From contig CAXVYR010000004.1 in assembly GCA_963666975.2 (NCBI GenBank), forward strand, positions 2,240,001-2,304,000: DNA of 64,000 bases, in the 5' to 3' direction. The position numbers and the translations under genes are program-made. The stretch comes from Terriglobia bacterium (GTDB taxonomy: Bacteria > Acidobacteriota > Terriglobia > 2-12-FULL-54-10). Position 1 is the first letter of the stretch; each line of letters starts with the position of its first letter. Shown here piece after piece: positions 1-54,757 of this stretch. The notes beneath the pieces are model-generated. The model did not search any database, was not told where the DNA came from, and saw only the letters and a program-made list of their open reading frames with translations.

Positions 1-1260
1 ATTGACATTATCAGAGAGCACTACGCGGACCAACTGGCAAATTTTGTTGATCCCAATATCCCGCTGCCACAGGATATTGATGAAACAGGAGTCTGCGGCA
101 CCTGCTATCGCTATCCGGAGCAGGACATTATTTACCCGCCGGAGGTGTTGCGGGAGCTCTACCGCCTGGGTTTGTCCTGGATGACAGGTTATGGGATGAC
201 CTTGAACGGATCGAGCCTTTACACGGCCGGAGCCATTGCGGCTTACACATCGCTGGATGAGGCTGGAGAAATGGCTCAGCGCTTCGCTTGGGACTGGTAC
301 TGGCCGCCACGAAAGGATTTCTTCCTGGATACCTATTTTGCTACCGCTGTGAGCGCGATGGTGGGGAAAGGATCCGATTACCTCTGGATGAACGGAGCAG
401 TTCCTGCTCTGAATGGCCGGGCCTGCACTACCCTGCCAGGCACTTCTCCCGAAGTGAAAGAGCGGGAGCGGCGAGGCGGCTGCGCCTATGATCCGGACAC
501 TGCCGCCGGCAGGCTGAATCGGCAAGTCTTGTATAGCTTCATCAAGGCGGGAGGGCGGTTGGCCGGCGATCATACCATCGGCGATAAGGACATCGACCAC
601 ACGCTGGATATCATTGAGAAGGCCAGCCTCGACGCGGGGATGAGTTTGGAGCAGATTCGGGCCAAGCGGCATGCTTATGACCACATGGCGATGAGTCCCC
701 GTCCGGATCAGGTCCCGCGGATCAAGCATCTGGGCATGCAAACCAGCGGCTGGGACATCTCCATTTGGGAAGGCAGAGGGCAACAGATCTTACGGGACTA
801 CGGAGAGGAGGCGGCTCAATGGGTGGTCCCGCGGAAAAGCCTCCTCGATGCCGGAATCAGAAATAGTGTCGAGATTGACCGGCCCATTGGCTACACGAAC
901 CTGACCTTCTTCCACGTCCTTTATTCCGGGATTACCCGGAAGGACCAAGACGGGGTAGTCACAGCGCCGCAACAGGCGGTGAGCCGGGAAGCCATGTTAA
1001 AGTCGGCAACGCTTTGGGGGGCTTATTACGGCAAACACGAGGATACGAATGGTTCGCTGGAACCAGGTAAGTTTGCCGACTTGACCGTGCTGGACCGGGA
1101 TTATCTGACTATCCCCGTGGAAGAAATTCTGAAGATCCGGGTCTTGATGACCCTAGTGGGAGGCAAAGTAGAACACTTGGCGCCATCGCTGGCGAAAGAG
1201 CTTGGCATGCAGCCTACCGGAGCTCAGGTGGAACTCGGTGGACCTGCCTCGCAATGGTGA
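1..1260 (+). CDS. Amidohydrolase-3 (YtcJ-like) family protein, paralog 1, 5'-partial
   Basis: Frame is open from base 1 (IDIIREHYADQ...CGTCYRYPEQDIIYPPEVLRELYRLGLSW). Contains GDHTIGD, HAYDHM, GSLEPGKFADLTVLDRD and the C-tail shared with the other paralogs. Confidence 0.9.
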   Translation: MDIIREHYADQLANFVDPNIPLPQDIDETGVCGTCYRYPEQDIIYPPEVLRELYRLGLSWMTGYGMTLNGSSLYTAGAIAAYTSLDEAGEMAQRFAWDWYWPPRKDFFLDTYFATAVSAMVGKGSDYLWMNGAVPALNGRACTTLPGTSPEVKERERRGGCAYDPDTAAGRLNRQVLYSFIKAGGRLAGDHTIGDKDIDHTLDIIEKASLDAGMSLEQIRAKRHAYDHMAMSPRPDQVPRIKHLGMQTSGWDISIWEGRGQQILRDYGEEAAQWVVPRKSLLDAGIRNSVEIDRPIGYTNLTFFHVLYSGITRKDQDGVVTAPQQAVSREAMLKSATLWGAYYGKHEDTNGSLEPGKFADLTVLDRDYLTIPVEEILKIRVLMTLVGGKVEHLAPSLAKELGMQPTGAQVELGGPASQW

Positions 1261-1416
1261 AACATCGCGGCGGGACCGCGCCGATTCAGCCGGTTTTGAA
1301 ATTTGAGTGCCAGCTAATTGTATGGCGATACTTGTCAGAACGAAGAGGCAATAGGCTGTTCTGACCGACAAGCACAGCACGGCTAACATTAACAATCCGA
1401 AAGGGTGGGTAAATGT

Positions 1417-3279
1417 ATGATGGGTCAATGGGTGTTGCGAATAGGAGTGCTGCTGGGAGTAATCTGGGCTGGAGGAGGTCTCCTCCGGGCCCAACAGACG
1501 CCGGATACGATTCTCTACAACGGGAAGATCGTTACGATAGACAACCATGAGGTCAATGGGGATTTAGGCACCATTGCTCAGGCACTGGCGATCCAGGACA
1601 ATGAGATCGTGGCTGTGGGAACCAACGCCCAGGTGCGTGCTTTGGCCGGCGGTAACACGAAATCCATCGACCTGAAAGGGCGGACTGTGGTGCCGGGTTT
1701 TGGCGGCACGCACGATCACCCCATGGACTGGGACACGATCAATCCGTCCATCGTAAAAAAAGTAGTCACCGACGACATGCACATTGAGCGGTTTTTGAAT
1801 GATTCTCCGGATGAGCAGTTGCGACAGTTTCCGCGGGTTTTAGAGGAAGCGGTACGGACGGCCAAACCCGGCCAATGGATTCGGATTAGTCTGCTGTTTG
1901 GCGAGGAATATCGGGGGGGGCCTGAGATTCGGCAGTTTTTTGGGAGGCAGATCAACAAGGAGATGCTGGACCTGGCGGCTCCCAACAATCCGGTGCAGAT
2001 CCGCGGCGGTTTTACCGGAATGGTGGTGAACCAAAGAGCGATTGACCTGACCAAACAGTTCTACGGGGATCAATGGGATGCGTTCGTCTGGAATCCGTAT
2101 GGAGAAGTTGAGAAAACAGGCGTCGGAGGCACCGCCTATCGGTGGTTGGAGCAGGACGTGCTCTACCCGCAGGAGGTCTTGCAGGAGATCTATCGCCTGG
2201 GTTTGTCCTGGATGGCGGGTTATGGAGTGACCCTGAACGCCTCGGGTCTTTACACGCCGGGAGCGGTTGCTGCCTACCATGCATTGGACGAGAGGGGAGA
2301 GCTGGCCATTCGAATGCCGTGGAGTTGGCAGTGGAGGCCGCGTCCTGATTTATGGTCCGATCCTTATTTTCCCAAGGTGATGGCCGGCATGTTGGACAAA
2401 GGGTCAGATCACCTCTGGCTGACCGGGTTGTGGCCTTCTGACAACGGGGCCGGTTGCTCCACTCTGCCCGGCACCTCTCCGGAGGTAAAAGAGCGGGAAG
2501 TTTGCCACTTCAGTCAGGATTATCGGAACGGGGAAACAGCCACGGCCTTGTACCATATGGTCAAGGCAGGCGGTCGATTAGCCGGGATACACACCGGCGG
2601 CGACAAGGACATCGATTACCTTCTCGACACCATTGAGAGGGCCAGCAAGGACGCCGGGATGAGTCTGGACCAGATTCGGGCCAAACGGCACGCGTATGAC
2701 CATATGGGGATGAGCCCTCGTAAGGACCAGATTGAACGGCTCAAGAATCTCGGTATGATCGTGGGCGGTTATAATATGCAACTCTGGGAAGGAGGAGGCG
2801 AGCGGTTGCTTGCGAATTACGGAGAGCAGGCGGTCGAATGGATGCAACCGCGGAAAGACCTCCTCGATGCGGGATTGATGAATAGCGTGGAGATCGACCG
2901 CCCCATTGGATACACCAATCTCACCTATTTCACCGTCCTCTATGCGGGCATTACCCGGAAGGATCAGAACGGCAAGATCTGGGGGCCGCGTCAGGCGATC
3001 GGTCGGGAAGCCATGTTAAAGTTCGCCTCGCTTGGCGGAGCTTATTACGCCAAACGCGAGGATAAGCTGGGGTCGCTCGAGCCCGGCAAGTGGGCCGACC
3101 TGGTCGTATTGGACCGCGATTATCTGACGATTCCCGTGGATGACATTCTAAATGTCAGGGTCCTGATGACTATGGTGGGAGGCAAGGTGGTGCACTTGGT
3201 TCCCTCCATGGCCCGAGAAAACGGGATGCAGCCCACCGGGGCGCAAGTGGAGCTCGGCGGGGCGGCGGCTCAATGGTAG
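1417..3279 (+). CDS. Secreted amidohydrolase-3 family protein, paralog 2
   Basis: Signal peptide ending LLRA|QQ, then PDTILYNGKIVT, DLKGRTVVPGFGGTHDHP (HxH), IHTGGD, HAYDHM and GSLEPGKWADLVVLDRD. Start taken at ATG 1417 (GTG 1405 is possible). Confidence 0.92.
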   Translation: MMGQWVLRIGVLLGVIWAGGGLLRAQQTPDTILYNGKIVTIDNHEVNGDLGTIAQALAIQDNEIVAVGTNAQVRALAGGNTKSIDLKGRTVVPGFGGTHDHPMDWDTINPSIVKKVVTDDMHIERFLNDSPDEQLRQFPRVLEEAVRTAKPGQWIRISLLFGEEYRGGPEIRQFFGRQINKEMLDLAAPNNPVQIRGGFTGMVVNQRAIDLTKQFYGDQWDAFVWNPYGEVEKTGVGGTAYRWLEQDVLYPQEVLQEIYRLGLSWMAGYGVTLNASGLYTPGAVAAYHALDERGELAIRMPWSWQWRPRPDLWSDPYFPKVMAGMLDKGSDHLWLTGLWPSDNGAGCSTLPGTSPEVKEREVCHFSQDYRNGETATALYHMVKAGGRLAGIHTGGDKDIDYLLDTIERASKDAGMSLDQIRAKRHAYDHMGMSPRKDQIERLKNLGMIVGGYNMQLWEGGGERLLANYGEQAVEWMQPRKDLLDAGLMNSVEIDRPIGYTNLTYFTVLYAGITRKDQNGKIWGPRQAIGREAMLKFASLGGAYYAKREDKLGSLEPGKWADLVVLDRDYLTIPVDDILNVRVLMTMVGGKVVHLVPSMARENGMQPTGAQVELGGAAAQW

Positions 3280-3310
3280 CCTTCGAGGCTTGGTTTTTTG
3301 CCTAACCGAA

Positions 3311-3564
3311 GAGGTTGTTGGAAAACTGGTGTATGGGTCCGCTTGCTAATCCCTCGGCTTCGCTCCCTTCGGCTATGCTCCCTTCGACTTCGCTCAGGGC
3401 AGGCAGGGCAGGCGCGCGCGGCTCTGCAACTGCAGCCCAATCAGCACGCCCATTCCGAGCCGCGATAGCCTGCCCCGAGCGAAGCCGAGGGGTGAGGGAG
3501 CGGACAAATGGCGTTTTTCAACAACCTTCTGCTTTTCAACAACCTTCTACTTTTCAACAACCTC
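3311..3564. mobile_element. MITE-like element with (G)AGGTTGTTG(G/A)AAAA...TTTTCAACAACCT(C) ends and internal REP-like palindromes; right end triplicated
   Basis: Terminal inverted repeats and three tandem TTTTCAACAACCT copies (about 3515-3564). The left half matches the reverse complement of 59433-59534. Confidence 0.7.
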
Positions 3565-3598
3565 CTAAATGCGGCAACACTTCCCGCGGAGTAAATTT

Positions 3599-5524
3599 AT
3601 GAACAGCCGGTCGGTTTTGCGACTTGTGGTGACGGCGTGGGCATTCTGGGCTGGAGCAGTCCTCCTCCATGCCCAACAGACGCCCGACACCATTCTCTAC
3701 AATGGCAAGATCGTCACCGTGGATGACCACAGTTTCAATTCCCGCTTGGGGACAATCGCGCAAGCGATGCATGTCCGGAATGGCAAAATCCTGCACCTGG
3801 GCAACGATGCGGAAATTCGTGCGATGGCAGGGGCCAACACCAGAGTAATGGATCTGAAAGGACGTACGGTGATTCCGGGGATCATTCTCACCCATGAACA
3901 TCCATACGATTGGGGGTCGGTTGACATCTATGCGCTGAAAAAATATCTCACCGACGACCAGGTTGTTGTCAGGATTCTGGAAGATAGTCCCCAGGAAAAT
4001 GTGAAGGCATTCCCTGGAGTGCTGGCGGAGGCTGTTTCGAAGGCGAAGCCTGGCCAGTGGATATACATTGTTATCACTTCTGGAAAGAACTTCGAATATC
4101 ACGCGATGAGCAACGGTGGTTTGGGACGCAGTTTGCTGGACCCCTCCCTGCGAATACCCGAAGAGATGCAAATCACAAAAGAACAATTAGACGCGGCGGC
4201 GCCCAATAATCCAGTCTATGTCGGTGGCTGGCTTTCGGTAACGGGTGTTCGTCGCGGAGAAGGGTTGAACCAGAGAGGGATTGAGGAAGCCGAGAAGGTG
4301 TTGCCCCCCGGCCCAGCCTACCAATCTGAGGAGATTAGCGGCCGCACCATTTTCGCAGAAGTGATTATGAAGGACTATTACCCGCAGCTCGTCCAGATCA
4401 TGCGGAGTGGTCTGGAGTGGTGGGCGGGATACGGGATGACGACCTATGCATCGCACCTCTATACCCCTTCCAATCTCAGGATCTGGCGGGAACTGGACCG
4501 CAAAGGACAGATGCCGGTCCGGAATATGTGGACCTTTCGATGGAACTCCGAGTACTTGCTTTCCGATCTATTTTTCATCACTGACATAGCTACCCGGTTA
4601 GGCGAAGGATCGGATTACTTCTGGAATGGAGGAGCGGCTTTTAGAACTCTCGGTGGCGGCGGTGACTGCACGTCTGCGCAGCCTGTGCCTTCCTCGAAAA
4701 TAATGCAGGAAGAGGAATTCGCTGCGGAAATGAGGGAACGCCGGCAAAGAAACTGCCGGTTCGCCCCCAACTCAAAGGAATTTGAGATCCTCGAGAAGTT
4801 TATCCGCGCGGGGGGACGGTTCGTGAATCTGCATACGACGGGAGACGGCACGGTGGACGGTATGCTGATGGCTATTGAACAGGCCAGTAAAGCCGCTGGC
4901 ATGACCGAGGAGGAGATTCGCGCCAAGCGGCATGGGGCGGACCATACGGTGATGTGGCCCCGGCCCGATCAGATTCCGGTTCTAAAACGGCTGGGTATGG
5001 TTGTCAGCAGTGATGGCTATGAGATTGTGATGGCCTCCCCGTCCGTTTTTGACCTTTACGGGGAACGATCTGCCAGGTGGGTTGCGCCCAAGAAAAGCCT
5101 CACGCAGGCAGGAATCTACAACTCTCTAGAGATAGATCGCCCCCTTCAGACGACTACAAACCTGACAATTTTCTCCGCCGGCATTGACCCGATCATCACG
5201 CGGAGAGCCTGGGATGGCAAGGTGTACGCACAAAATGAGGCGGTGGATCGGGAATCGGCTCTAAAGATCGCCACTTACTATGGAGCCTACTATGTCTTGC
5301 GGGAAAACGTCCTGGGTTCCCTGGAGCCGGGGAAATGGGCGGATATGCTTGTGCTCGACCGGGATTATCTGACCATTCCAGAGGATGACATCAGGAACAT
5401 CCGCGTTTTGATGACGATGGTAGGTGGAAAGGTCGTTCACCTGGTGCCCTCTCTGGCCCGAGAAATCGGGATAGAGCCGGCGGGGGCGCAGGTAGAACTC
5501 GGCGGTCCTGCGGCTCAATGGTGA
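3599..5524 (+). CDS. Secreted amidohydrolase-3 family protein, paralog 3 (divergent)
   Basis: GGAG before ATG 3599. Signal peptide LLHA|QQ, PGIILTHEHP, NLHTTGD, HGADHT, SLEIDRP, GSLEPGKWAD and the shared C-tail. Confidence 0.92.
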   Translation: MNSRSVLRLVVTAWAFWAGAVLLHAQQTPDTILYNGKIVTVDDHSFNSRLGTIAQAMHVRNGKILHLGNDAEIRAMAGANTRVMDLKGRTVIPGIILTHEHPYDWGSVDIYALKKYLTDDQVVVRILEDSPQENVKAFPGVLAEAVSKAKPGQWIYIVITSGKNFEYHAMSNGGLGRSLLDPSLRIPEEMQITKEQLDAAAPNNPVYVGGWLSVTGVRRGEGLNQRGIEEAEKVLPPGPAYQSEEISGRTIFAEVIMKDYYPQLVQIMRSGLEWWAGYGMTTYASHLYTPSNLRIWRELDRKGQMPVRNMWTFRWNSEYLLSDLFFITDIATRLGEGSDYFWNGGAAFRTLGGGGDCTSAQPVPSSKIMQEEEFAAEMRERRQRNCRFAPNSKEFEILEKFIRAGGRFVNLHTTGDGTVDGMLMAIEQASKAAGMTEEEIRAKRHGADHTVMWPRPDQIPVLKRLGMVVSSDGYEIVMASPSVFDLYGERSARWVAPKKSLTQAGIYNSLEIDRPLQTTTNLTIFSAGIDPIITRRAWDGKVYAQNEAVDRESALKIATYYGAYYVLRENVLGSLEPGKWADMLVLDRDYLTIPEDDIRNIRVLMTMVGGKVVHLVPSLAREIGIEPAGAQVELGGPAAQW

Positions 5525-5640
5525 GCGTCAGGGTGGCGCCGTGACCTTTGCTGTCACGATCCGCCGGACAGGCGGCAGCGGCCTTCCGCTTCGCTTGCCT
5601 TTCTTATTTAATCTTCTGAAAATAACCGTGGGGTGAATTG

Positions 5641-7503
5641 ATGAAAACTCGATGGATTTTGCGACTGGCAGTGACGGCATGGGTAATCTGGGCCGGAGAG
5701 GGCCTCCTCCGGGCCCAACAGACGCCCGATACCATTCTTTACAATGGGAAGATCGTTACGGTGGACAACCATGAGGTCAATGAGCAGTTAGGCACTGTCA
5801 CCCAGGCTCTGGCCATCACAGGCGATACGATTGTGGCCGTGGGAGACAACTCTCGAATTCGAGCTATGGCTGGCCCCAGCACCAAGAGCATTGATCTGAG
5901 GGGACGGACGGTGGTGCCGGGCTTTAGCGGCACGCACGATCACCCCATGGACTGGGACACGATCAATCCGTTCATCGTAAAAAAAGTAGTCAGCGATGAC
6001 ATGCACATTGAGCGGTTTTTGAATGTTGCTCCGGATGAGGCATTGCAACAGTTTCCGCAGGTTTTAGAGGAAGCGGTACGGACGGCCAGACCCGGCCAAT
6101 GGATTCGGATTAGTCTGCTTTATGGAAAGGAATATCGCTGGGGAAGTCAGATCATGGCGTTTTTCGGGCGGCAGATTAACAAGCAAATGCTGGATCTGGC
6201 TGCACCCGACAATCCGGTGGAAATTCGCGGCGGTTTTATTGGATTGGTGTTGAACCAAAGAGCGATTGAGCTGACCAAGGCGCACTATGGGGACCAATGG
6301 GATAAGTTTGTCTGGAATCCCTATGGTGACATTGAGAACACAGGAACCGGAGCCACCGCCTATAGGTGGTTGGAACAGGATGTGCTCTATCCGCCCGAGG
6401 TCTTGCAGGAGATCTATCGGCTAGGTCTGTCCTGGATGGCGGGCTATGGGGTGACGCTGAACGCATCGGGTCTTTACACCCCCGGAGCCGTTGCCGCCTA
6501 CCGCGCATTGGACCAGGGAGGGAAAATGGCTATCCGAGTCCCCTGGAGCTGGCAGTGGAGGCCGCGCCCTGACTTCTGGTCCGATCCATATCTTCCGGAG
6601 GTGATGGCAACCATGGTGGGAAGCGGGTCGGACCACCTCTGGCTGAATGGACTGTGGCCCTCAGACAACGCCTCGAGTTGTTCCACACTGCCCGGTACCT
6701 CCCCGGAGGTGAAGCAGCGGGAAGTCTGCCACTTTGGTTCTGACTTTCGCGACGGTGAGAATGCGGTAGCATTGTACAACATGGTCAAGGCGGGCGGCCG
6801 ATTAGCAGGGATACACACCGAGGCCGACAAGGATATAGACCTTATTCTGGACATCATCGAGAAGGCGAGCAAAGACGCCGGGATGACTTTGGACCAGATT
6901 CGGGCCAAGCGGCACGTCTATGACCATATGGGGATGAGTCCTCGGCCGGATCAGATCCCTCGGATCAAAAATCTGGGCATGATGACGGGCGGTTACAACA
7001 TGTTCCTTTGGGAAGGGGCAGGGGCGCAGGTGTTGAAGGATTACGGAGAACAGGCGGCTCAATGGGTGCAACCACGCAAGAGCCTCCTCAATGCCGGAGT
7101 GATGAATAGCGTAGAGATCGACCGGCCCATTGGATACACCGACCTGACTTACTTTACCGTCCTCTATGCAGGGATTACGCGGAAGGATCAAGACGGAAGG
7201 ATCATCGCGCCGAGTGAGGCCGTGAGCCGGGAAGCTATGCTGAAGTCGGCAACGATTTGGGGAGGGTACTACTCCAAGCGCGAGGATAAACTAGGGTCGA
7301 TCGAGCCCGGCAAGTGGGCTGACCTGGTCGTGCTGGACCGGGATTACCTGACCATTCCCGTGGACGACATTTTGAATATCCGGGTTTTGATGACCATGGT
7401 GGGAGGCGAGGTTGTGCACCTGGTGCCCTCCCTGGCCCGCGAAATCGGGATGCCGCCTGCTGGGGCGCAAGTGGAGCTCGGCGGGCTGGCGGCGCAATGG
7501 TAA
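5641..7503 (+). CDS. Secreted amidohydrolase-3 family protein, paralog 4 (closest to paralog 2)
   Basis: Signal peptide LLRA|QQ, PGFSGTHDHP, GIHTEAD, HVYDHM, SVEIDRP and the shared C-tail. Confidence 0.92.
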   Translation: MKTRWILRLAVTAWVIWAGEGLLRAQQTPDTILYNGKIVTVDNHEVNEQLGTVTQALAITGDTIVAVGDNSRIRAMAGPSTKSIDLRGRTVVPGFSGTHDHPMDWDTINPFIVKKVVSDDMHIERFLNVAPDEALQQFPQVLEEAVRTARPGQWIRISLLYGKEYRWGSQIMAFFGRQINKQMLDLAAPDNPVEIRGGFIGLVLNQRAIELTKAHYGDQWDKFVWNPYGDIENTGTGATAYRWLEQDVLYPPEVLQEIYRLGLSWMAGYGVTLNASGLYTPGAVAAYRALDQGGKMAIRVPWSWQWRPRPDFWSDPYLPEVMATMVGSGSDHLWLNGLWPSDNASSCSTLPGTSPEVKQREVCHFGSDFRDGENAVALYNMVKAGGRLAGIHTEADKDIDLILDIIEKASKDAGMTLDQIRAKRHVYDHMGMSPRPDQIPRIKNLGMMTGGYNMFLWEGAGAQVLKDYGEQAAQWVQPRKSLLNAGVMNSVEIDRPIGYTDLTYFTVLYAGITRKDQDGRIIAPSEAVSREAMLKSATIWGGYYSKREDKLGSIEPGKWADLVVLDRDYLTIPVDDILNIRVLMTMVGGEVVHLVPSLAREIGMPPAGAQVELGGLAAQW

Positions 7504-7607
7504 GCGGCCAGAAGGGACAACCCCAACTGGAATTCCGCTTTGTCGGCCGCCGCTAGCGCTCGTCAGGTTCGGTTCGCACTCAGGTTTGAATAAGGAGGTA
7601 ATAATCC

Positions 7608-9557
7608 ATGAGAAAAATTTCTTTTTTGAACTGTTCGTTTTTCTTCGTCCTCGTTTTTCTTTTGCTGCCGGTGAAGGGAGCACAAGGGCAAAACGCTGCC
7701 GATTTAGCCAGGAAGCTGGAGCGGCTCCAGGCTTATCCGGAGTTGATCGTCGTCAACGGCAAGATATCCACCATGGATGAACGGCTTACCGAGGTGGAAG
7801 CTATGGCCGTTAAGAACACACGGATTCTGGCGCTGGGAAGCAATGATGATATCCAGTTTCTGGCCGGTCCGAACACGAGGGTGCTGGACGCGAAGGGGCG
7901 GAGGGTGTTGCCGGGCCTAATAGATGGTCACACTCATCCGCATCTTTGGGCCGTAGAGCACTGGCTCGGGGCGGAAGGAGATTTTACCTCCCAGAAATAC
8001 AACGACCCGCAGCTGAAGATCACCTACGCCAAGGGGAATGACGGGGCCGAAGTGTTGCAGTCGCTGGAACGGGCCGTTCGCCAGAGGGCCCAGGAATTAG
8101 GTCCCGGCAAGTGGATTTGGATCGGCTTGTTTGGGAAAAACACGCTCGTCGAATCCAGAGAGGTTGTCTACCCCCTCTTCCAGCGGGCAACCGGAGAACC
8201 GGGAACGATTACCCGAGAGTTTTTGGACACGCTGGCCCCCGACAACCCCCTGATGGTGTTTGGAAGCGAAGCCATCGGGCCGGCCGCCAACAATACCAAA
8301 GCCAAGGAGGAGATGGAAAAATATCTGGGCGTGGAAGTGAGGGGGTTGTCGGCCCGCAATTCGGTAACCTACGACATTCTGTTCCGCGGAAAAACAGAGG
8401 AAAAGCTGGACTTCCTCAAGCGCGAGTTGCTCGAATGCGTGGTGGCCCAAGGGATCACCACTTTTAGCAACCATTATTACAACTCCCCCTCCATTATGAA
8501 TATCTACCGTTTACTGTACGAACGGGACGAACTGCCCGTGCGGTGGGCTTGGTGGGTGGGCGGAGGCCTCGGCGCTAGCCGTGTGCAAAGTGATTCCTCC
8601 TTCAGCGCCCAATATCCCAGTCTCTTTTATAACGATCTGGGAGACTTCCGGGGAATCGGAAACGATTACATATGGAATGTCGGTGTTTCCAACGAAGGCT
8701 GGGAAGGCGGGATTTCGTGCACCAAAGCCACTTTGCCGGCTAACGCGCAAGCGCCTAGCTCCGGGATTGCCCGGGTGCATCGGGATGGCATTCTTCGCCC
8801 ATCCTGTTCCGAGCCGATTGACTATGACAATCAGCCGGGATACCGGCGGGTGAAGGCGGCAATGGAAGCCGGCCTGCGCATCGGGTTCCTGCACCATTAC
8901 AGCGATGGAACGTTCGATGCTTTATTTCACATGATCGAAGAGGCGATTGCCGAGGGTAAGATGACCCTGGAGCAGGTGCGAGCGCTTCGGATCAGCACGG
9001 AGCATACCCCGATGGTTCGCCCGGATCAGGTGGAGAAGATAGCCCGCTATGGGATCATGCCGGCTTTTAATGGTTACCAGGTTCAGGGGAACATTAAAGG
9101 TGGCGCGTTCCTGAAGGCCTTTGGCGAGCAATACATGAGCTGGATGGCGCCCATGAAGAGCCTGGTCGATGCCGGGGCGCATCCGGTGTTCAACACCGAT
9201 GCCCACTTGCATAAGGTTCCGATCGAATCCAAGGACATGGACTACCCGCCGCAGTGGGATGGCAACATCTGGGGGTTCATTGAATTTTTTGTAACCCGCC
9301 GGATGCCCCATGACGGGATCACTTACGCCAGCCAGGAGGCAATGGATCGGACTGCCCTGATGAAGGCGGCTACCATTTGGGGAGCTGAGCAGGTCCTGCG
9401 CGAGGACCACATTGGTTCGCTGGAGGTGGGAAAGCTGGCCGATTTTATCGTCATTGACAAGGACTACTTCGCAATTCCCGGAGACCAAATTGGCACCATC
9501 AAGACATTACTGACCGCCGTGGGTGGAAAGACAGTGTTCCAGGCTCCAAACTACTAA
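7608..9557 (+). CDS. Secreted amidohydrolase-3 family protein, paralog 5 (different subclade, lacks the shared C-tail)
   Basis: AAGGAGG RBS. Signal peptide, DAKGRRVLPGLIDGHTHPH, LHHYSDG, STEHT, FNTDAH, GSLEVGKLADFIVIDKD; ends GGKTVFQAPNY. Confidence 0.92.
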   Translation: MRKISFLNCSFFFVLVFLLLPVKGAQGQNAADLARKLERLQAYPELIVVNGKISTMDERLTEVEAMAVKNTRILALGSNDDIQFLAGPNTRVLDAKGRRVLPGLIDGHTHPHLWAVEHWLGAEGDFTSQKYNDPQLKITYAKGNDGAEVLQSLERAVRQRAQELGPGKWIWIGLFGKNTLVESREVVYPLFQRATGEPGTITREFLDTLAPDNPLMVFGSEAIGPAANNTKAKEEMEKYLGVEVRGLSARNSVTYDILFRGKTEEKLDFLKRELLECVVAQGITTFSNHYYNSPSIMNIYRLLYERDELPVRWAWWVGGGLGASRVQSDSSFSAQYPSLFYNDLGDFRGIGNDYIWNVGVSNEGWEGGISCTKATLPANAQAPSSGIARVHRDGILRPSCSEPIDYDNQPGYRRVKAAMEAGLRIGFLHHYSDGTFDALFHMIEEAIAEGKMTLEQVRALRISTEHTPMVRPDQVEKIARYGIMPAFNGYQVQGNIKGGAFLKAFGEQYMSWMAPMKSLVDAGAHPVFNTDAHLHKVPIESKDMDYPPQWDGNIWGFIEFFVTRRMPHDGITYASQEAMDRTALMKAATIWGAEQVLREDHIGSLEVGKLADFIVIDKDYFAIPGDQIGTIKTLLTAVGGKTVFQAPNY

Positions 9558-9639
9558 ATCCGGAACCGCCAAGTCTGGATTCGTTCTACATACGTCGCCT
9601 GCGGGCAAAGCGCAAAAGAAACGATGAATCGGGCGTGAA

Positions 9640-9816
9640 GCCGTATCCCCCGGACTGACTGGGTAAGCCAGACGCAGAACGGGTTGGAACTGGATGCAGG
9701 TCAGTTGGGGAACCTAGAGTTCGTGCTGGAACGTTCTAAACCCCAGCAGGGAGGGGTTCAAGGCACGGTCGAGGAAGCGGCAGAGTCGCCCTCCGCCACC
9801 ACTGCCTGGCAGGTTT
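9640..9816 (+). pseudogene. Relic of a TonB-dependent receptor gene (N-terminal domain/linker fragment)
   Basis: Manual translation WVSQTQNGLELDAGQLGNLEFVLERSKPQQGGVQGTVEEAAESPSATTAWQV aligns with FVSRLQEGLELGAEQLVTLDLVLERDSGDQERTAQSTGEGADKESSATNAGQI in the receptor at 39443-42685. Confidence 0.7.
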
Positions 9817-9930
9817 GGTTGGCCTTGCGATTGTCGTTCTAGCATTACAGATTCCGAATCCGATAGAATTCCCACGTCTCATGGAGTCCAACACAGGCGG
9901 GAGACATTACCGAAGGGGGTATTCATTCAA

Positions 9931-11064
9931 ATGTTGTCACGAATTTTTTGCCTGGCTGCCCTGAGTTTAGCTTTTCTACTCCAGAGTGCTTGCACCGGGG
10001 AGATAAGTCCTGAGCTGATTTGGGTTCCTCCTGATGACACCCGGTTGCAGTGGTTGAATGTTGCCGGTTGGGAACAGGAAGGAGAAGCATTTCGTCCGGC
10101 GCGCGTACCCCGAGATTGGCGAGACCGATTCCCGGAGAGGACCGCCCAGACAGCCATGGCACCTGCCGGGGTCGTATTACGAGTTGCAACAGACGCCCGG
10201 AAAGTAGCCCTGCGCATCAGTGTAGATCCACCCCGGCCAAGGCCGGCAGGCGCTCCGACGAGGCCACCGTCTGTAACTGCAACTGCCTTTGATGTTTACC
10301 GGAATAACGAATTTCTACTCAGCGCGGACACTTCGGGAGAACCCGGTGCCCAGGAAATCACGCTTTATGAAAACCCTCCGAATGGCAGCGGCGAAATCGC
10401 CGTTTTGTTTCCTGCTGGCCTCTCGTTCGTGGTGCAGAGTGTGGGCTTTTCGAGCGACGCACAGTTTGCTCCTCCGAACCGGCCGGCCCAACCACGGGTT
10501 CTCTTCCATGGCGATTCGATTACGCAGGGAACCGGCGCCACCCACAGCAGAAATACGTACGCGTGGGTGACCTGCGAGAAGATCGGGTGCGAGCCGATCA
10601 ATCTGGGTTTTGGGGGAAGCGCTTGGGGCGATCAACCCGTGGCAGAATATATCGCCAGCCGAAACGATTGGAATGCGCTTGTGGTCGCTTACGGCACAAA
10701 CACCTACCGTCGAGCCCACGAGGATCCGGAACAGTTTGCTCAAACCTACGATACTTTCCTGGCCACGGTTCGGGCCGAACACCCCGACGCACCGATCCTG
10801 TGCATCACGCCCCTGTGGCGCATCCAAGACACGACGAACGAGAAAAACGAGGGCGGATACACCCAACAACAGTATCGGGAGGCAGTCACACAGGTCGTCA
10901 GCCGCCGCCAGAGCTCCGATTCTAACCTGCACCTATTAGAAGGCAAAGATTTGGTCCCGGAAAATCTTTTCACTGCCGACCAGGTTCATCCCAACAATGA
11001 AGGTGCGGCACAAATGGCCGAAGCTATCGCGAACGCATTAAGACCACTGCTCGGACCCTTGTAG
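9931..11064 (+). CDS. Exported SGNH/GDSL hydrolase (probable lipoprotein) with N-terminal accessory domain
   Basis: SGNH blocks FHGDSITQG, NLGFGG, YGTN and DQVHPN. N-terminal hydrophobic stretch with a lipobox-like LQSAC. Confidence 0.85.
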   Translation: MLSRIFCLAALSLAFLLQSACTGEISPELIWVPPDDTRLQWLNVAGWEQEGEAFRPARVPRDWRDRFPERTAQTAMAPAGVVLRVATDARKVALRISVDPPRPRPAGAPTRPPSVTATAFDVYRNNEFLLSADTSGEPGAQEITLYENPPNGSGEIAVLFPAGLSFVVQSVGFSSDAQFAPPNRPAQPRVLFHGDSITQGTGATHSRNTYAWVTCEKIGCEPINLGFGGSAWGDQPVAEYIASRNDWNALVVAYGTNTYRRAHEDPEQFAQTYDTFLATVRAEHPDAPILCITPLWRIQDTTNEKNEGGYTQQQYREAVTQVVSRRQSSDSNLHLLEGKDLVPENLFTADQVHPNNEGAAQMAEAIANALRPLLGPL

Positions 11065-11124
11065 GCCCATTGGGGATTGCAAGAGATTGTGGCGTGTCCA
11101 CTGGTTATTAAAACCCTGTTGCAG

Positions 11125-11228
11125 GCCACCCAGGCGTTCGGCCGTGCGGCTTTTTTCTAATCCGGGGCCACTGCTGTTTCACCCAGCGTTAGATCACTTC
11201 CTCATCCCGTTCGATGGCCCGTCGCTCC
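11125..11228 (-). pseudogene. IS630-family transposase N-terminal (winged HTH) fragment
   Basis: Minus strand reads ERRAIERDEEVI*RWVKQQWPRIRKK, typical of the end of IS630 OrfA; has an internal stop. Confidence 0.6.
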
Positions 11229-11318
11229 GTCAGTCTATTCCTGTTTGGGGTGAACCAAACCTTAAACCGTGTAACTTCCGCTCCGCCTCATGGCGCTCCC
11301 ATTTCCGCTGATGTCCAA

Positions 11319-11970: not shown

Positions 11971-12954
11971 TTAGGCTGCCCTTCTTTTGAAGTGCAACCG
12001 TTTTCTTAAGATCATAGTTTTCTCTTTGATGCGATCCCGTTTTTGCAGGATGGCACTGCCTTGGCCTGTAAAAACGTCATACGGTGTCAGGTTGTTCAGG
12101 CTTTCATGGTATCGGTTGGTGTTGTAGTGGTTGACGAAGGCATCGATCTGCCGCTCCAGCTCTTCTGGCAGGTAATAGTTGTTGAGCAGGATGCGGTCTT
12201 TCAGAGTTCGGTGCCAGCGTTCGATCTTGCCCTGCGTCATGGGGTGATAGGGCTTGCCGCGAGTATGCGGCACGCTGTTTTCTGCCAGCCATGATTGCAG
12301 TTCGGAAGAGACGTAGCACGGCCCGTTGTCGCTCAGGAGGCGAGGTCTGTGCCGGGCGCCCACGCGGTCGAGGCCGGTGGCTTGCAAAGCATCCCGCAAC
12401 GTGGCCGAGACGTCACTTGCGCTCATGGTTTTGCACAGCCGCCAGGCGATGATATAGCGCGAGAAGTCGTCCAGCACCGTGGACAGGTAGAACCAGCCCC
12501 AACCGATGACTTTCAGGTAGGTGAAGTCGGTCTGCCAGAGCTGGTTGACCGCCGTGGTCGGGTTGGCGAACCGTTCCGCCGCTTTCAGGACAATAAAGGC
12601 TGGCGCGGTAATCAGGTCATGGCTTTTCAGGACGCGGTAAACCGTCGATTCAGAAAGGTAATACCGCCTTTCCTCGGTAAAACGCACCGCCAGCTCGCGT
12701 GACGACAGATCGGGCTCGGCCAGGGCTAACGTCACCAACTGCTGAGTTATCTCCTCCGGCACCTTGTTCCAGACAGGGCCAGGATCGGGTTTTTTGTCTT
12801 CCAGCCCATCAAAGCCTTCCGACACATAGCGGTCGTACCAGTTGTAAAACGTCGATCTGGGAATGCCAACCTGCTGCAGCGTCCGGCGCACCCCCAGGGC
12901 AGATTGCTCCACCGTGCAGATGATCTCCAGCTTCTCCGAGGCAGGGTATCTCAT
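11971..12954 (-). CDS. IS3-family transposase OrfB (DDE integrase core)
   Basis: LWQTDFTY, LDDFSRYI, LSDNGPCY and QGKIERWHRTLK DDE motifs. Confidence 0.93.
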   Translation of the reverse strand: MRYPASEKLEIICTVEQSALGVRRTLQQVGIPRSTFYNWYDRYVSEGFDGLEDKKPDPGPVWNKVPEEITQQLVTLALAEPDLSSRELAVRFTEERRYYLSESTVYRVLKSHDLITAPAFIVLKAAERFANPTTAVNQLWQTDFTYLKVIGWGWFYLSTVLDDFSRYIIAWRLCKTMSASDVSATLRDALQATGLDRVGARHRPRLLSDNGPCYVSSELQSWLAENSVPHTRGKPYHPMTQGKIERWHRTLKDRILLNNYYLPEELERQIDAFVNHYNTNRYHESLNNLTPYDVFTGQGSAILQKRDRIKEKTMILRKRLHFKRRAA

Positions 12955-13322
12955 GTATGTTCCTCCCCATCCCCGATCACGCTTTTTTTTAGCAGGCGAT
13001 TTTCCAGCATAGCCTCGGCCAGGGCCTCTTTCAGCTGTACGGCCTGCTCCCGCAGAGTCTTGACTTCGCCACTGGTTGCCTCACGGTCTATGTCGCCCGC
13101 CAGCCGCTTGCGGCCAGCCTCCAGAAACTCCTTGCTCCAGCGGTAATACTGGTTCTGGTGCAGCCCCTCGCGGCGGCACAGCTCCGCGATGCTGTCCTCG
13201 CCGCGAAGTCCCTGCAATACAATGCGGATTTTGTCTTCCGGGCTGAACCTGCGCCGCGTCCTGCGTTTGATCTCCCGGACGGCCTTCTCGACCGCCCCCC
13301 TGTCGTCTTGTTTTTGTCTCAT
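12951..13322 (-). CDS. IS3-family transposase OrfA (HTH), probably joined to OrfB by -1 frameshift
   Basis: RRFSPEDKIRIVLQGLRGEDSIAELCRREG HTH. An A-run slippery site (CTAAAAAAAAGC) lies near the 3' end, about 12982-12992. Confidence 0.9.
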   Translation of the reverse strand: MRQKQDDRGAVEKAVREIKRRTRRRFSPEDKIRIVLQGLRGEDSIAELCRREGLHQNQYYRWSKEFLEAGRKRLAGDIDREATSGEVKTLREQAVQLKEALAEAMLENRLLKKSVIGDGEEHT

Positions 13323-36668: not shown

Positions 36669-37934
36669 ATGCTAAAACCCCAACTCTAGAGAAACATTCA
36701 ATATGTTCGAAACATTGAGATCGAGGGATTTCGCAGCTTCCGGCATGTAGATTTAGATATCCCGTCTCTTGCCGTTCTCATCGGACCCAATGGCAGCGGC
36801 AAGTCAAATTTTCTCGATCTTCTTTCTCTTATGGCTGAAGCTGCACGCGGAGGTTTGGCCGAAGGTATAGCCTCGCGAGGTGGGTTTAACAATCTGGCTT
36901 TTAGGGGAGACCCCGGAGACATTTTCTTAGGACTTCGTTTCCAAGCTACAGGGGTATTCGAAGAAGAAAGAGAAAACGTTACCTTCAAGCTCAAACTAAA
37001 AAAATTCGGTCCAAATCCAAAGGTTTGGTTCGAGCAAGTTTCCAAAGCCCCGCGACCCCCTTTCCACCGGGCACCACTCATGCTTATGCATCGGGATAAG
37101 GATGGATGTATGTTTCGGTCAATTAAAACCGGAATGAAAGAGGAACTGGAGGAAAATGAAGAGGGAAAAGCCTTGGAGTCCGACTCTGAACTAGCAATTT
37201 CACAGGTTAAAGACCAAGAAAAATATCCGACGCCATATAAACTTTTGCGGCTATTACAGGAGTGGACTCTCTGCCGGGATATCAATGTGGATGCCAACGC
37301 TCCTGTCCGGCAACCTTCGCTAATTCGCGCGACCCTACGTCTTGGTCCAAACGGTACAAACCTGGCTTCAGTTCTCTACTCGATCCAACAACAACATCCT
37401 TCGAAGAAATCCTTGAAACAGCGTATCCCAATCTCCATTGCTATTTGGAAGGAGATCGAAGAAATCCTTGAAACAGCGTATCCCAATCTCCATTCCATTA
37501 CGTTTCCCCCAGAAGGTGGTGACGGAAAGGTTCTTCTTCGGTGGTGGGAACGGCCATATGAAAAGGAGAGCGGATTTTCTGCCAACCTCTTGTCTGACGG
37601 CACTCTTAAGTTTCTTTGTCTGATAGCGATTCTGAAAAGCCCTGACCCGCCCCCGCTCATCTGTATCGACGAACCTGAACTTGGTCTCCATCCGGACTGG
37701 ATCAAATTGGTTGCGGAATTGATGCAATCGGCAGCTAGCCGAACCCAACTGGTAGTTGCTACTCACTCCCCTCAACTAGTGGCAAAACTCCGCCCTGATC
37801 AGGTCATTGTGGCAGAAAAGGTGGACGGAGAAACTCAACTGAAGCGGCTTTCGGAAGAGAAACTGGGGAAATGGCTAGAGGAATTTAATCTGGGCGACCT
37901 CTGGATTGCTGGCCATTTCGGTGGTCGGCCTTGA
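36669..37934 (+). CDS. ABC/SMC-like AAA ATPase (AAA_21/COG4637-like); start uncertain, in-frame TAG at codon 7
   Basis: Upstream of the ORF-track start the same frame reads IEIEGFRSF...VLIGPNGSGKSNFLD (Walker A), followed by LSDGT, ICIDEPELGLHP and VATHSP. ATG 36669 is followed by TAG 36687-36689; ATT 36696 is an alternative start. Confidence 0.85.
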
Positions 37935-38578
37935 GAACCAACACTCCGAAGAAAGGGGGGAGAATCGTTATTTTATGTGAAGGCGAGACTGAAGAACTTG
38001 CTGTGAGACATTCCATTGCGAGGCGATGGCAGACAGAAGATCACCAAACTGTTGGGTTAAAAGCAATAGGTTTAAGAGGTAGGATACAGGATGTCGCCGT
38101 TAAGAGTAGGCTTTTCCTTGACGAGCAAAACGTTCTTGGAGTTTTTACGCTCGTTGACCTTTACAGGATGGATCGAGTTGATCACCCAGTTGGCGACTCC
38201 CTCAATACAAAAGTGCAGCGAGTCCGTGATTGGTTAAAAGCGCAAGTGAGTCATACTCGATCTAATGATTTTTACCCTCACGTCAGTGTGCACGAGACCG
38301 AAGCCTGGATTTTGGCTGAAGGTTCTGCCTTAGCAGGGCGGTTAAATGACAACAGCCTTAGACCAGACCCCAATGCCGAATTGAAAAATTTCCAACTGCC
38401 TCCTTCTAAACATATTAACGAACTCTTCCTCACGAGAAAACACGGTGACCGATATCAGAAGATTAGAGATGGCACTCCTCTTTTCAAAGCAATAAAGTTC
38501 GACGTGGTTTATAACTCATGTCAATACTTCCGAGCTTTCTACGAAGATCTAAAAGCCGCAGGTCGTAGTTCGGAGTGA
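37931..38578 (+). CDS. DUF4276-like / TOPRIM-fold putative nuclease
   Basis: IVILCEGETEE, LVDLY and VHETEAWILA; 4-bp overlap with the ATPase stop. Confidence 0.8.
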   Translation: MRTNTPKKGGRIVILCEGETEELAVRHSIARRWQTEDHQTVGLKAIGLRGRIQDVAVKSRLFLDEQNVLGVFTLVDLYRMDRVDHPVGDSLNTKVQRVRDWLKAQVSHTRSNDFYPHVSVHETEAWILAEGSALAGRLNDNSLRPDPNAELKNFQLPPSKHINELFLTRKHGDRYQKIRDGTPLFKAIKFDVVYNSCQYFRAFYEDLKAAGRSSE

Positions 38579-42400: not shown

Positions 42401-42685
42401 CAATCGTTGGATTTCAAACTGTCCCTCTGCGTCGCTGCTGACGGTACGGCTCAATCCCGTCTCCAGATGCTTCACCATCACCGCCGTCCCCGCGAGGGGC
42501 GCTCCTGACTGATCCTGCACCGTACCCCGCAGCGTCGCCATGCTCCCCTGTGCCAGCGCCCCTGTCCTTGCCCAGAAAAGCAGCGTGATCAGAAGCGCTG
42601 CCGAAAGAATCAACCGCTGCATTATTGATTTGCATGCGCACATGCCCCGCACTTTCTTGAAAAAAGCTGACTGCATGGTCTGCAA
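39443..42685 (-). CDS. TonB-dependent receptor with N-terminal carboxypeptidase-regulatory-like domain (acidobacterial type)
   Basis: Signal peptide, GTVQDQSGA, LPLNGRSY.QL, NNFLLDG, RNQFG, SPRLG and C-terminal RQIQFALRFSF. Confidence 0.93.
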   Translation of the reverse strand: MQTMQSAFFKKVRGMCACKSIMQRLILSAALLITLLFWARTGALAQGSMATLRGTVQDQSGAPLAGTAVMVKHLETGLSRTVSSDAEGQFEIQRLVPGTYEVQASQAGFVSRLQEGLELGAEQLVTLDLVLERDSGDQERTAQSTGEGADKESSATNAGQISESQLVGLPLNGRSYSQLATLQSGVSDPSAASGSRGIGGGGLTISGGRSTSNNFLLDGTNIMDHRNQVPRSAAGVQLGSEAVLQVQILTITGADYGRGSGGVLNSITRSGTPEFHGTFFEYFRNSKLDARNFYDPGPEPPPFKRNQFGFTLTGPVVKDRTFFMGSFEGLRDRLTKTEIDFFPDELARQGMITDASGAVIQTVPVNPRVVPYLELYPLPNSVSVGRGIGEYIDSQFLPTDENFFTVRLDHQISERDSLFARYTFDDATSHSAESTVLFTRLNNSRQQYLTLVGTHIFNPSLLNSFRLGYTRPVNAAESLSSIEIDPSLFFIPDAPQLGQISVPGLSNFGPMSTNPLANITNTFQFADDVVAQRGAHALKMGVEVHRYRWDLFSSSFKGGTWLFNSLESFLQGGPEGTTLKTALPGADSRKAYRQTLLGFYLQDAYTVSPRFQLNLGVRYEFATLIHDRDGKTTFLPDPVRDPAVQIGPLLEKNPSPRNLSPRLGITWSPWGSQNTVLRAGFGIYYDQMLKYVVDQAKSTAPFYKQVVRTNFDSSTIFPDAVTAAAGIPLEARILDYHHFTTPMVLRYSFALQQQLPGGWRTRASYVGARGNHLFRGYESNLFPLPITRADESLCFPPDVAQEDLVANPTCPPVPTSEAGPVNPAFGGILIMSSDAQSFYNSLQLSANKSLSRGISLQASYTYSKSVDDASTFSFHGNPTQYGLMRTLERGLSNFDIRHRLVFNYFYTLPLGSGLRWWNSGVLAHVFEGWRLGGIVRFRTGTPFTARINVLTPGYLFAATRPNLLPGRSNNSTQGGPDQYFDPSVYSVPEPGTLGNVGRNTVIGPSVFNVDVSLQREFVLDAKRRLQFRAEFFNLPNHANFGLAQAIVFSGASGRPNPTAGRIRSTVTTARQIQFALRFSF

Positions 42686-52237: not shown

Positions 52238-52243
52238 CTTTAC

Positions 52244-54733: not shown

Positions 54734-54757
54734 CTCGTACCTCCTCCTTTACCCTTA

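Follow-up and report, generated by a model that had tools for sequence, protein, structure and literature searches.

A large family of divergent YtcJ-like amidohydrolases, recurrently linked to TonB-dependent outer-membrane proteins, in an acidobacterial genome

A 64,000-nt stretch of the genome of a Terriglobia bacterium (lineage 2-12-FULL-54-10; contig C4, positions 2240001-2304000; hereafter the window) was found to carry, at its left end, five co-oriented genes for predicted exported amidohydrolases of the Amidohydro_3 family (PF07969) and, farther along, a sixth copy beside the gene of a TonB-dependent receptor (TBDR). These six genes proved to belong to a family of 87 full-length paralogs in this one genome, and the observation made in a first-pass annotation of the window was thus confirmed but had been understated. 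We consider it moderately probable that organic nitrogen compounds imported through the TBDRs are hydrolyzed by these amidohydrolases, acting as a diversified periplasmic panel. The analyzed genome (designated G000) is a 4.23-Mb assembly of four contigs with a completeness of 98.9%; open reading frames (ORFs) were called over the whole of it by our own procedure, yielding 3584 non-overlapping ORFs of at least 100 aa. The fourth gene of the array served as the reference for residue numbering, the AlphaFold2 model and the searches.

All five plus-strand ORFs within positions 1-9557 of the window matched PF07969 in Pfam (E 3.5e-26 to 1.7e-38), and the six window copies scored 93-134 bits, above the cut-off of 29.7 bits, so that the five consecutive genes reported at first pass were upheld. 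Copy 1 (1-1260, subfamily A1) is represented by its 3' 419 codons, being open at the 5' side at the window edge; it is followed by copy 2 (1405-3279, 624 aa, A1), which has a signal-peptide-like N-terminus, copy 3 (3569-5524, 651 aa, A1b), copy 4 (5638-7503, 621 aa, A1), and copy 5 (7608-9557, 649 aa, B1), giving the subfamily order A1-A1-A1b-A1-B1. The array had been thought to run off the left edge of the window; copy 1 is indeed cut there, but the array goes no further, because the complete gene (G000:C4:2239377-2241260, 627 aa) starts 624 bp to the left and is preceded, 183 bp upstream, by the plus-strand gene of an Oar-class TBDR of 1137 aa (C4:2235781-2239194, outside the window). The array therefore comprises exactly five genes and is led by a TBDR. 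Identity among the window copies ranged from 28 to 79%, with the highest value between copies 2 and 4; copy 3 shared 48-50% with the other A-type window copies and has its nearest paralog elsewhere in the genome (60%), and copy 5 shared 28-32% with copies 1-4, its nearest paralog lying at C4:264920-266869 (76%). A hairpin followed by a T run (3278-3300, plus strand) starts at the stop codon of copy 2, before the longest spacer of the array (289 bp); promoter and terminator scans of positions 1-11300 gave counts not above those of shuffled sequences (8 vs 6.3 and 10 vs 9.8, respectively).

Downstream of copy 5 stands the gene of an SGNH/GDSL esterase (9931-11064, plus strand, 377 aa) with a GxDLY/SsfX3_N-like N-terminal domain and a hydrophobic N-terminus, and the right boundary of the locus is formed by an IS481-like insertion sequence (11971-13322, minus strand) consisting of a 327-aa rve transposase (11971-12954) and a 123-aa ORF. 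The locus order is thus TBDR, five amidohydrolases, SGNH esterase, and insertion sequence. In a congener (G001), the orthologous locus contains a TBDR, seven amidohydrolase genes and, directly downstream of the array, the SGNH esterase ortholog; the copy number therefore shifts within the genus. The esterase had initially been counted as part of the system, and this assignment was not sustained: since it occurs as a single copy in the genome and is kept at the orthologous locus of the congener, it is particular to this one locus and not a general component.

The extent of the family was apparent from genome-wide searches. Copy 4 gave 108 tblastn matches in its own genome, and a phmmer search of the ORF set returned 103 matching ORFs, 90 of which are at least 550 aa long; when a family member was defined as an ORF of at least 550 aa scoring at least 100 bits, 87 remained, the other three long ORFs being different amidohydrolases. 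Together these paralogs total 165,798 bp, or 3.9% of the genome, in which PF07969 matched 124 times overall, and about ten shorter ORFs are family fragments, including one copy split in two. Pairwise identity ranged from 23 to 100% with a median of 33%, and the median identity to the nearest paralog was 76%. A FastTree phylogeny divided the paralogs into subfamilies A1 (33 copies), A1b (7), A2 (14), B1 (9) and B2 (15), plus 9 others. The genes are distributed over 54 clusters, namely 38 singletons, 8 pairs, 3 triplets, 3 clusters of four, one of five and one of seven. Because only 13 of the 49 array genes have their nearest paralog within the same array, the arrays are mixed-subfamily panels and not fresh tandem duplicates.

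We then related these clusters to the TBDR genes, counting a receptor as adjacent when it lay on the same strand within 700 bp of an amidohydrolase cluster. Such a TBDR accompanied 12 of the 54 clusters (31 genes), whereas 2000 random placements of the 37 TBDRs of the genome produced on average 0.36 such clusters and never more than 5; the neighborhood enrichment that the first-pass annotation had put forward for checking thus stood at approximately 30 times the random expectation. Eleven of the 37 TBDRs are involved, with the receptor upstream of the array at seven of the clusters and downstream at the other five, and the linked receptors comprise two sequence types. The linked members are spread over the five subfamilies (16 of 33 in A1, 2 of 7 in A1b, 4 of 14 in A2, 2 of 9 in B1, and 7 of 15 in B2). 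The linkage is also seen elsewhere: in a set of 20 regions picked for strong matches from nine genomes of the same taxonomic family, it recurred in 8 regions from 5 of the 9 genomes, including the orthologous G001 locus, and the arrays in these relatives included one of eight amidohydrolases behind a single TBDR and others of five and more on either side of two TBDRs.

These associations have to be weighed against the evident mobility of the family. Many copies are flanked by transposases of IS481-like, IS256-like (433 aa, Mutator) and DDE_Tnp_1_4 types; the IS481-like 327- plus 123-aa pair that bounds the five-gene locus also flanks many other amidohydrolase loci, and five further 327-aa transposases beside such loci gave Pfam scores that were the same to the decimal. 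Six pairs of paralogs are at least 90% identical, and two pairs are 100% identical across contigs (C3:308601-310439 with C4:577921-579759, and C3:880557-882392 with C4:773381-775216), which indicates that these segments were duplicated very recently, or possibly that the assembly contains a repeat. In addition, a conserved upstream element of approximately 230 bp travels with nine dispersed A1 copies (e.g., C4:1133446-1135305, C3:296654-298531 and C4:671258-673141); a 10-mer within it lies at -59 to -75 from the ORF start and occurs at 14 sites in the genome, 9 of them upstream of an amidohydrolase gene. This element could represent a promoter or leader that was copied along with the gene, or else one end of a mobile element. 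The dynamics of the family are thus clearly driven by insertion sequences and by duplication of segments. On this basis, it could be argued that the family is selfish or drift-driven and has no functional coupling to the receptors, the TBDR adjacency arising from abundance and co-duplication, as some TBDR-amidohydrolase pairs are themselves duplicates (C3:1209950 vs C2:245349, 96% identical) and as the family has left about ten fragments. We regard this explanation as quite improbable. Although the median identity is 33%, nearly all 87 copies retain their catalytic residues and signal peptides, and such conservation makes purely selfish amplification unlikely; moreover, the adjacency far exceeds the random expectation and extends to all five subfamilies and two TBDR types, all 13 searched genomes of the taxonomic family retain the expansion, and in a second lineage, described below, arrays stand beside another predicted outer-membrane barrel family.

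The remaining neighborhood is heterogeneous, with transposases abundant in it. A Pfam scan of 111 of the 224 listed neighbor proteins in this genome revealed, besides transposases, Amidohydro_1 genes, alpha/beta hydrolases, an amidase, dienelactone hydrolases and Vgb-lyase-like propellers; an attempt to deduce a specific substrate from these neighbors found no support in so mixed a set and was rejected.

As for the protein itself, the AlphaFold2 model of copy 4 was of high confidence (pLDDT 95.4, pTM 0.92) and, like the solved members of the family, displayed a (beta/alpha)8 barrel with an adjoining beta-sandwich. The top Foldseek matches were 3icj (E 7e-26, target-normalized TM-score 0.78) and 3igh (0.77), both at 18-19% identity, followed at approximately 0.6 by the triazine hydrolase TrzN, imidazolonepropionase and adenosine-deaminase homologues. 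A profile built from 86 paralogs retrieved the same two PDB entries (3icj, E 2.6e-29; 3igh, E 4.5e-26), which are both uncharacterized metal-dependent hydrolases from Pyrococcus, and superseded a single-sequence PDB search that had given weak matches. All other PDB profile matches were made only through generic terminal segments, and this search returned no close characterized relative in the PDB. Among NCBIfam models, the best score was 61.8 bits to PRK08204, titled 'hypothetical protein' (cut-off 391), and the equivalog models scored at most 41 bits against cut-offs of 298-779, their partial matches (TRZ/ATZ, 8-oxoguanine deaminase, SsnA, HutI, Xaa-Pro dipeptidase and others) being confined to terminal segments. 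Judged by the PDB, NCBIfam and fold searches, no characterized clade appears to be close to the family; the placement within a known clade that would have spoken against the initial proposal was thus not observed. Consistent with this distance, PF07969 scored 90-137 bits for family members and 298 bits for the one canonical YtcJ-like gene of the genome.

The putative active-site residues were almost invariant. H100 and H102 are present in 87 of the 87 paralogs, H393 and D397 in 86, H430 in 87 and D495 in 83, and the HxH motif, the His of HAIGD on beta5, the His of the EH motif on beta6 and the Asp on beta8 align with the corresponding motifs of 3icj. These retained metal and catalytic residues, together with the confident model and the YtcJ-like fold matches, make the enzymes look active. 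Meanwhile, we take the Lys of the 3icj sequence GVKLFVDG to be the carboxylated lysine, with which the ligand spacing agrees, and this residue aligns to G338, three residues after the common Trp W335. The glycine occurs in 85 of the 87 copies and W335 in 86, and Lys was not among the five commonest residues in any of columns 333-341 over the 87 copies. The importance of this lysine is illustrated by the PF07969 bile-salt hydrolase BwBSH1, in which the corresponding Lys373 is carboxylated and joins two metals and the K373A mutant has no activity (bioRxiv 10.64898/2026.04.05.716592). Since the bridging lysine is replaced by glycine, the alignment marks the family as a divergent branch of PF07969, with a metal centre that probably differs from the canonical one and is perhaps mononuclear.

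This substitution gives rise to an alternative in which the cellular location and the TBDR coupling are as we propose, but the enzymes, instead of hydrolyzing amides or formamides, would be mononuclear hydrolases of a deaminase- or dechlorinase-like kind with N-heterocycles of purine-, pterin-, pyridine- or triazine-like type as substrates. HxH, the beta5 His and the beta8 Asp make up the ligand set of adenosine- and cytosine-deaminase-type centres, and precisely these residues are kept here in the absence of the bridging carboxylated lysine. The same direction is indicated by the fold matches that follow 3icj and 3igh, as well as by the NCBIfam partial matches, which were mostly to TRZ/ATZ hydrolases, 8-oxoguanine deaminase, 5'-deoxyadenosine deaminase and SsnA; the latter, however, are all far below cut-off and cover generic N- and C-terminal segments only. 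The deaminase HxxE motif is furthermore absent, the conserved motif being HxxxD as in the YtcJ-like HAIGD. Anecdotally, molybdopterin-hydroxylase large subunits, enzymes that often act on N-heterocycles, are encoded near some copies (loci L117:6431-8644, L035:9173-11407 and L189:12230-14632, in G000, a related-genome locus and G148, a genome of another class of the phylum, respectively), and molybdopterin-hydroxylase genes of the xanthine-dehydrogenase family are also present in the window at 51245-55744 (minus strand). Together, the lysine-less centre, these weak similarities and the nearby molybdopterin hydroxylases would allow for the opening or deamination of N-heterocyclic rings. On balance, we consider this alternative chemistry unlikely.

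The conservation of the barrel core contrasted with the diversity of the loops, as the first-pass annotation had noted: mean column conservation was 0.65-0.72 around residues 61-100 and 541-600, versus 0.12-0.36 at 161-180, 221-240, 301-320 and 341-380. These variable stretches fall between the barrel elements, where amidohydrolases build their substrate pockets. Within the variable loop that follows the Lys-equivalent strand, C348 and C364 are conserved in 83 and 82 of the 87 copies and may form a disulfide, which would suit an exported protein. Export itself was assessed with a heuristic that requires a hydrophobic 12-mer, an upstream K/R and a small-x-small site. Eighty of the 87 paralogs passed; six failed narrowly on hydrophobicity and one has a short N-terminus. 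The earlier statement that every complete window copy bears a Sec-type signal peptide therefore held in general, with the exception of copy 3, which has the same layout and narrowly fails on hydrophobicity. Because of these signal peptides, the lack of a lipobox or Tat motif in any of the 87 copies, and a detached helix at residues 3-26 of the model, the enzymes are predicted to leave the cytoplasm as soluble proteins. At the opposite end, the C-terminal tails are subfamily-specific and conserved ('...GAQVELGGPAAQW' in the A-type, '...STW.E.IPEGW' in A2 and '...GGK.V[FY].AP[ND][YF]' in B); most paralogs end in an aromatic residue, and the last 20 residues of the model had a pLDDT of 59-64.

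Variable loops around a conserved scaffold, combined with TBDR adjacency and with the lack of a SusD-like gene among the 111 scanned neighbors, might also suggest that the proteins are non-catalytic substrate-binding partners of the receptors, analogous to SusD. This reading is very improbable: the metal and catalytic residues are almost invariant, which would be unexpected in a pure binding protein and makes a binding-only role unlikely, and no lipobox is present for tethering to the outer membrane.

The nature of the receptors was evaluated at the second locus of the window, where copy 6 (42710-44563, minus strand, 617 aa, subfamily A1; PF07969 E 8.9e-27) is separated by 24 bp from the start, as given by the longest ORF, of the downstream gene for an Oar-class TonB-dependent outer-membrane protein of 1080 aa on the same strand (39443-42685), the pairing that had been recorded at first pass. 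The nearest paralog of copy 6 (82%; C4:2219789-2221642) belongs to another TBDR-linked cluster. Pfam assigned to the receptor a CarboxypepD_reg N-terminal extension at residues 51-132 (PF13620, E 6.8e-20), an OMP_b-brl_4 barrel at 267-1073 (PF25183, E 7.5e-185) and a TonB_dep_Rec_b-barrel match (PF00593, E 1.4e-8). The Pfam Plug domain was not listed at E ≤ 0.001, and no TonB box was recognized; invariant blocks mark residues 133-266 in 15 paralogs (P170, L171, G173, R174 ... S270, G271), and we read this region as a putative plug. A search of this protein against PDB sequences gave no match. Complex prediction with copy 6 (residues 25-617) and the N-terminal extension and plug region of the receptor (44-300) yielded a score of 0.00, which speaks neither for nor against binding. 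Genome-wide, five TonB_C matches and 49 OMP_b-brl_4 matches were obtained, the latter estimated to represent approximately 38-40 genes. Just downstream of the 1080-aa TBDR gene, a plus-strand pair (36831-38578) encoding an AAA_21 ATPase (367 aa) and a DUF4276 protein (215 aa) with a 4-bp overlap matched the PADLOC candidate defence pair HEC-01A (E 2.2e-64) and HEC-01B (E 1.8e-19).

The domain architecture of these receptors, namely a signal peptide, a CarboxypepD_reg extension, a plug region and a large barrel in approximately 1060-1140 aa, is the same as that described for Oar of Myxococcus xanthus (PMC6434023), the likeness being one of architecture. Oar, the founding member of this TBDR subclass, is stated there to be required for secretion of the PopC protease across the outer membrane (PMC6434023). 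In the main rival to our explanation, the Oar-class TBDRs would accordingly serve as exit channels, and the amidohydrolases would act outside the cell on polymeric or particle-bound organic matter. Secreted PF07969 enzymes do exist, as Bilophila metallo bile-salt hydrolases were reported in culture supernatants (bioRxiv 10.64898/2026.04.05.716592), and the subfamily-specific tails could, speculatively, be recognition tags. However, Oar is the only TBDR known to export a protein, and in the portion of the text at hand its cargo gene is not described as adjacent (PMC6434023). That cargo is a subtilisin-like protease without a signal peptide (PMC6434023), unlike the signal-peptide-bearing amidohydrolases that neighbor the receptors here, and 56 of the 87 copies have no adjacent TBDR. 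A single TBDR for up to seven different enzymes fits import and export alike. Taken together, export through the TBDRs is in our estimation rather unlikely.

Comparison with established systems brings out both common and distinct features. The family shares with YtcJ-like PF07969 proteins the Pfam family, above cut-off, the fold of 3icj and 3igh, and the HxH/His/His/Asp motifs; it differs in its low identity to these structures, in the Gly in place of the carboxylated Lys, in the conserved C348/C364 pair, and in its 87 copies per genome, many of them TBDR-linked. Characterized YtcJ-like members of PF07969 include NfdA, aminoacylases and the Bilophila metallo bile-salt hydrolases, and the last of these likewise have a Sec signal peptide and adjacent paralogs (bioRxiv 10.64898/2026.04.05.716592). 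With the polysaccharide utilization loci (PULs) of Bacteroidota, the loci share a TonB-dependent protein with a CarboxypepD_reg-type extension, co-oriented exported hydrolases, and an organization in many loci with different enzyme mixes. In contrast to PULs, no SusD-like gene was present among the scanned neighbors (111 of 224 listed), the TBDR reached only 14.2 bits with the SusC/RagA model TIGR04056, whose cut-off is 368 bits, the enzymes are amidohydrolases and not carbohydrate-active enzymes, and neither a hybrid two-component nor a sigma/anti-sigma regulator was noted beside the window loci. In comparison with Oar, the present genome holds approximately 37-40 such TBDR genes. The system can thus be described as a variant of TBDR-linked utilization loci and of YtcJ-like amidohydrolases.

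The expansion proved to be restricted in its taxonomic distribution. All 13 other searched genomes of the same taxonomic family contained matches at E ≤ 1e-20, with 10 to 135 first-look candidates each, at most 31 per genome being scored. Across 27 genomes representing ten further families of the class, matches were confined to 7, with one to three in each, and among 150 genomes sampled evenly over the phylum only one more, G148, matched at E ≤ 1e-40, with 67 matches to the family profile; beyond these the expansion is nearly absent. In the FastTree phylogeny, which comprised 177 sequences including 38 G148 copies, the latter interleave with the clades of the first family at six or more places, yet the large bursts are lineage-specific (33, 15, 15 and 9 copies in G000; 15, 7 and 7 in G148), which suggests an old shared toolkit that was expanded independently in the two lineages. 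Nine copies from gammaproteobacterial metagenome-assembled genomes (MAGs) were sister to three G000 copies with a support of 95. On a wider scale, 254 of 1.84 billion cluster representatives scored at E ≤ 1e-30; the nearest ESM Atlas clusters were all Amidohydro_3 and mostly from Acidobacteriota, and the closest titled record was the MAG 'Acidobacteria bacterium RIFCSPLOWO2_12_FULL_54_10' (68% identity), whose contig carries three copies as well as a TBDR. Literature searches found no paper describing this amidohydrolase expansion, nor any on the lineage '2-12-FULL-54-10'.

Several of the more distant loci have other neighbors. In three G148 loci (L185, L186 and L187), the arrays are flanked by proteins of approximately 720 aa with DUF5916, not by Oar-class TBDRs (5 of 16 large neighbors scanned); these carry signal peptides and hydrophobic-aromatic C-termini resembling outer-membrane barrel signals, and we regard them as a predicted outer-membrane barrel family. 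A 950-aa DUF5916 gene also lies beside a singleton amidohydrolase copy in G000. In gammaproteobacterial MAGs (L042-L050), tandem sets of three to five distant homologues are interleaved with a protein of approximately 477 aa without a Pfam family and adjoin a HupE/UreJ_2 protein and a VWA protein; HupE/UreJ_2, a nickel/cobalt transporter family, may hint at the metal used. An array of six homologues followed by a CopC-domain protein (L032, from a MAG titled Candidatus Acidiferrales) and one of four followed by a Peptidase_M64 protein (L094, from an Acidimicrobiaceae MAG) were also found, with a TBDR detected at neither.

With regard to expression, positions 1-9557 of the window were present nearly complete in 11 runs belonging to four studies, and partially in RNA libraries. 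Three metatranscriptome libraries from a single study gave contigs that fell on all five genes and the esterase at an identity of at least 99% and at low depth, and one RNA-library contig bridged the spacer between copies 1 and 2. These contigs lend weak support to expression of the five-gene locus and the esterase; stretches without RNA-contig cover are not evidence of silence.

The explanation that we prefer, at the level of probability given at the outset, can now be set out. The TBDRs would bring in organic compounds for which porins do not suffice because the molecules are too bulky or too rare. Nitrogenous substances, for instance N-acylated or N-formylated amino compounds, peptides or N-heterocycles, are the most likely candidates. 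The Sec-exported amidohydrolases would cleave the imported compounds in the periplasm, each paralog offering a different pocket built from its variable loops. At the five-gene locus, the SGNH esterase would strip ester decoration from the same substrate class. The whole would constitute a counterpart of a PUL in which amidohydrolases replace glycoside hydrolases and no SusD partner is involved. The receptor-plus-panel architecture proposed at first pass was in this respect borne out by its twelve recurrences in the genome and its presence in same-family regions, and not by all of the copies. Several observations weigh against our explanation. The 56 copies without an adjacent TBDR are a majority, and 38 of the 54 clusters are singletons. 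In distant relatives (24-36% identity), only two of the 74 loci had an adjacent TBDR, and both belong to a single Acidobacteria MAG, as judged with a profile built from acidobacterial sequences and insensitive to other TBDR types, and no TBDR was present among the 19 distant-taxa neighbor proteins scanned with Pfam. Among the scanned neighbors in G000 (111 of 224), no inner-membrane transporter or regulator recurred. In addition, the chemistry may differ from that of the known YtcJ-like amide hydrolases because the bridging lysine is missing, the sole studied member of the Oar subclass is needed for protein export and not for import (PMC6434023), and the contigs of the RNA libraries may stem from carried-over DNA.

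Acidobacteriota rank with the most abundant bacteria of soils and sediments and with those least often brought into culture, and their acquisition of organic nitrogen is poorly known. Because it occupies 3.9% of the genome, is kept in every searched genome of its taxonomic family and is wired to outer-membrane transporters, the amidohydrolase family is likely central to the ecology of this lineage. A bolder proposition, possible in our view though doubtful, is that the main nutrient strategy of this taxonomic family is an undescribed kind of utilization locus, in which Oar-class TBDRs and a hyper-diversified, lysine-less, probably mononuclear YtcJ-like panel would tap dissolved or soil organic matter for its amide and heterocyclic nitrogen, and that a second acidobacterial class would have independently paired the toolkit with a DUF5916 barrel. 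In any case, a PF07969 branch with an altered metal site provides, in its 87 natural variants, a ready panel for new C-N (or other) hydrolytic activities, and the loci offer a tractable system for the import-versus-export question on Oar-class TBDRs raised by the PopC/Oar work. The scale, the altered active site and the lineage restriction make the system worth experimental follow-up. If the bolder proposition is true, the system would represent a nitrogen-side counterpart of the Bacteroidota PULs, and the combination of an outer-membrane channel with an amidohydrolase panel would be a convergent design.

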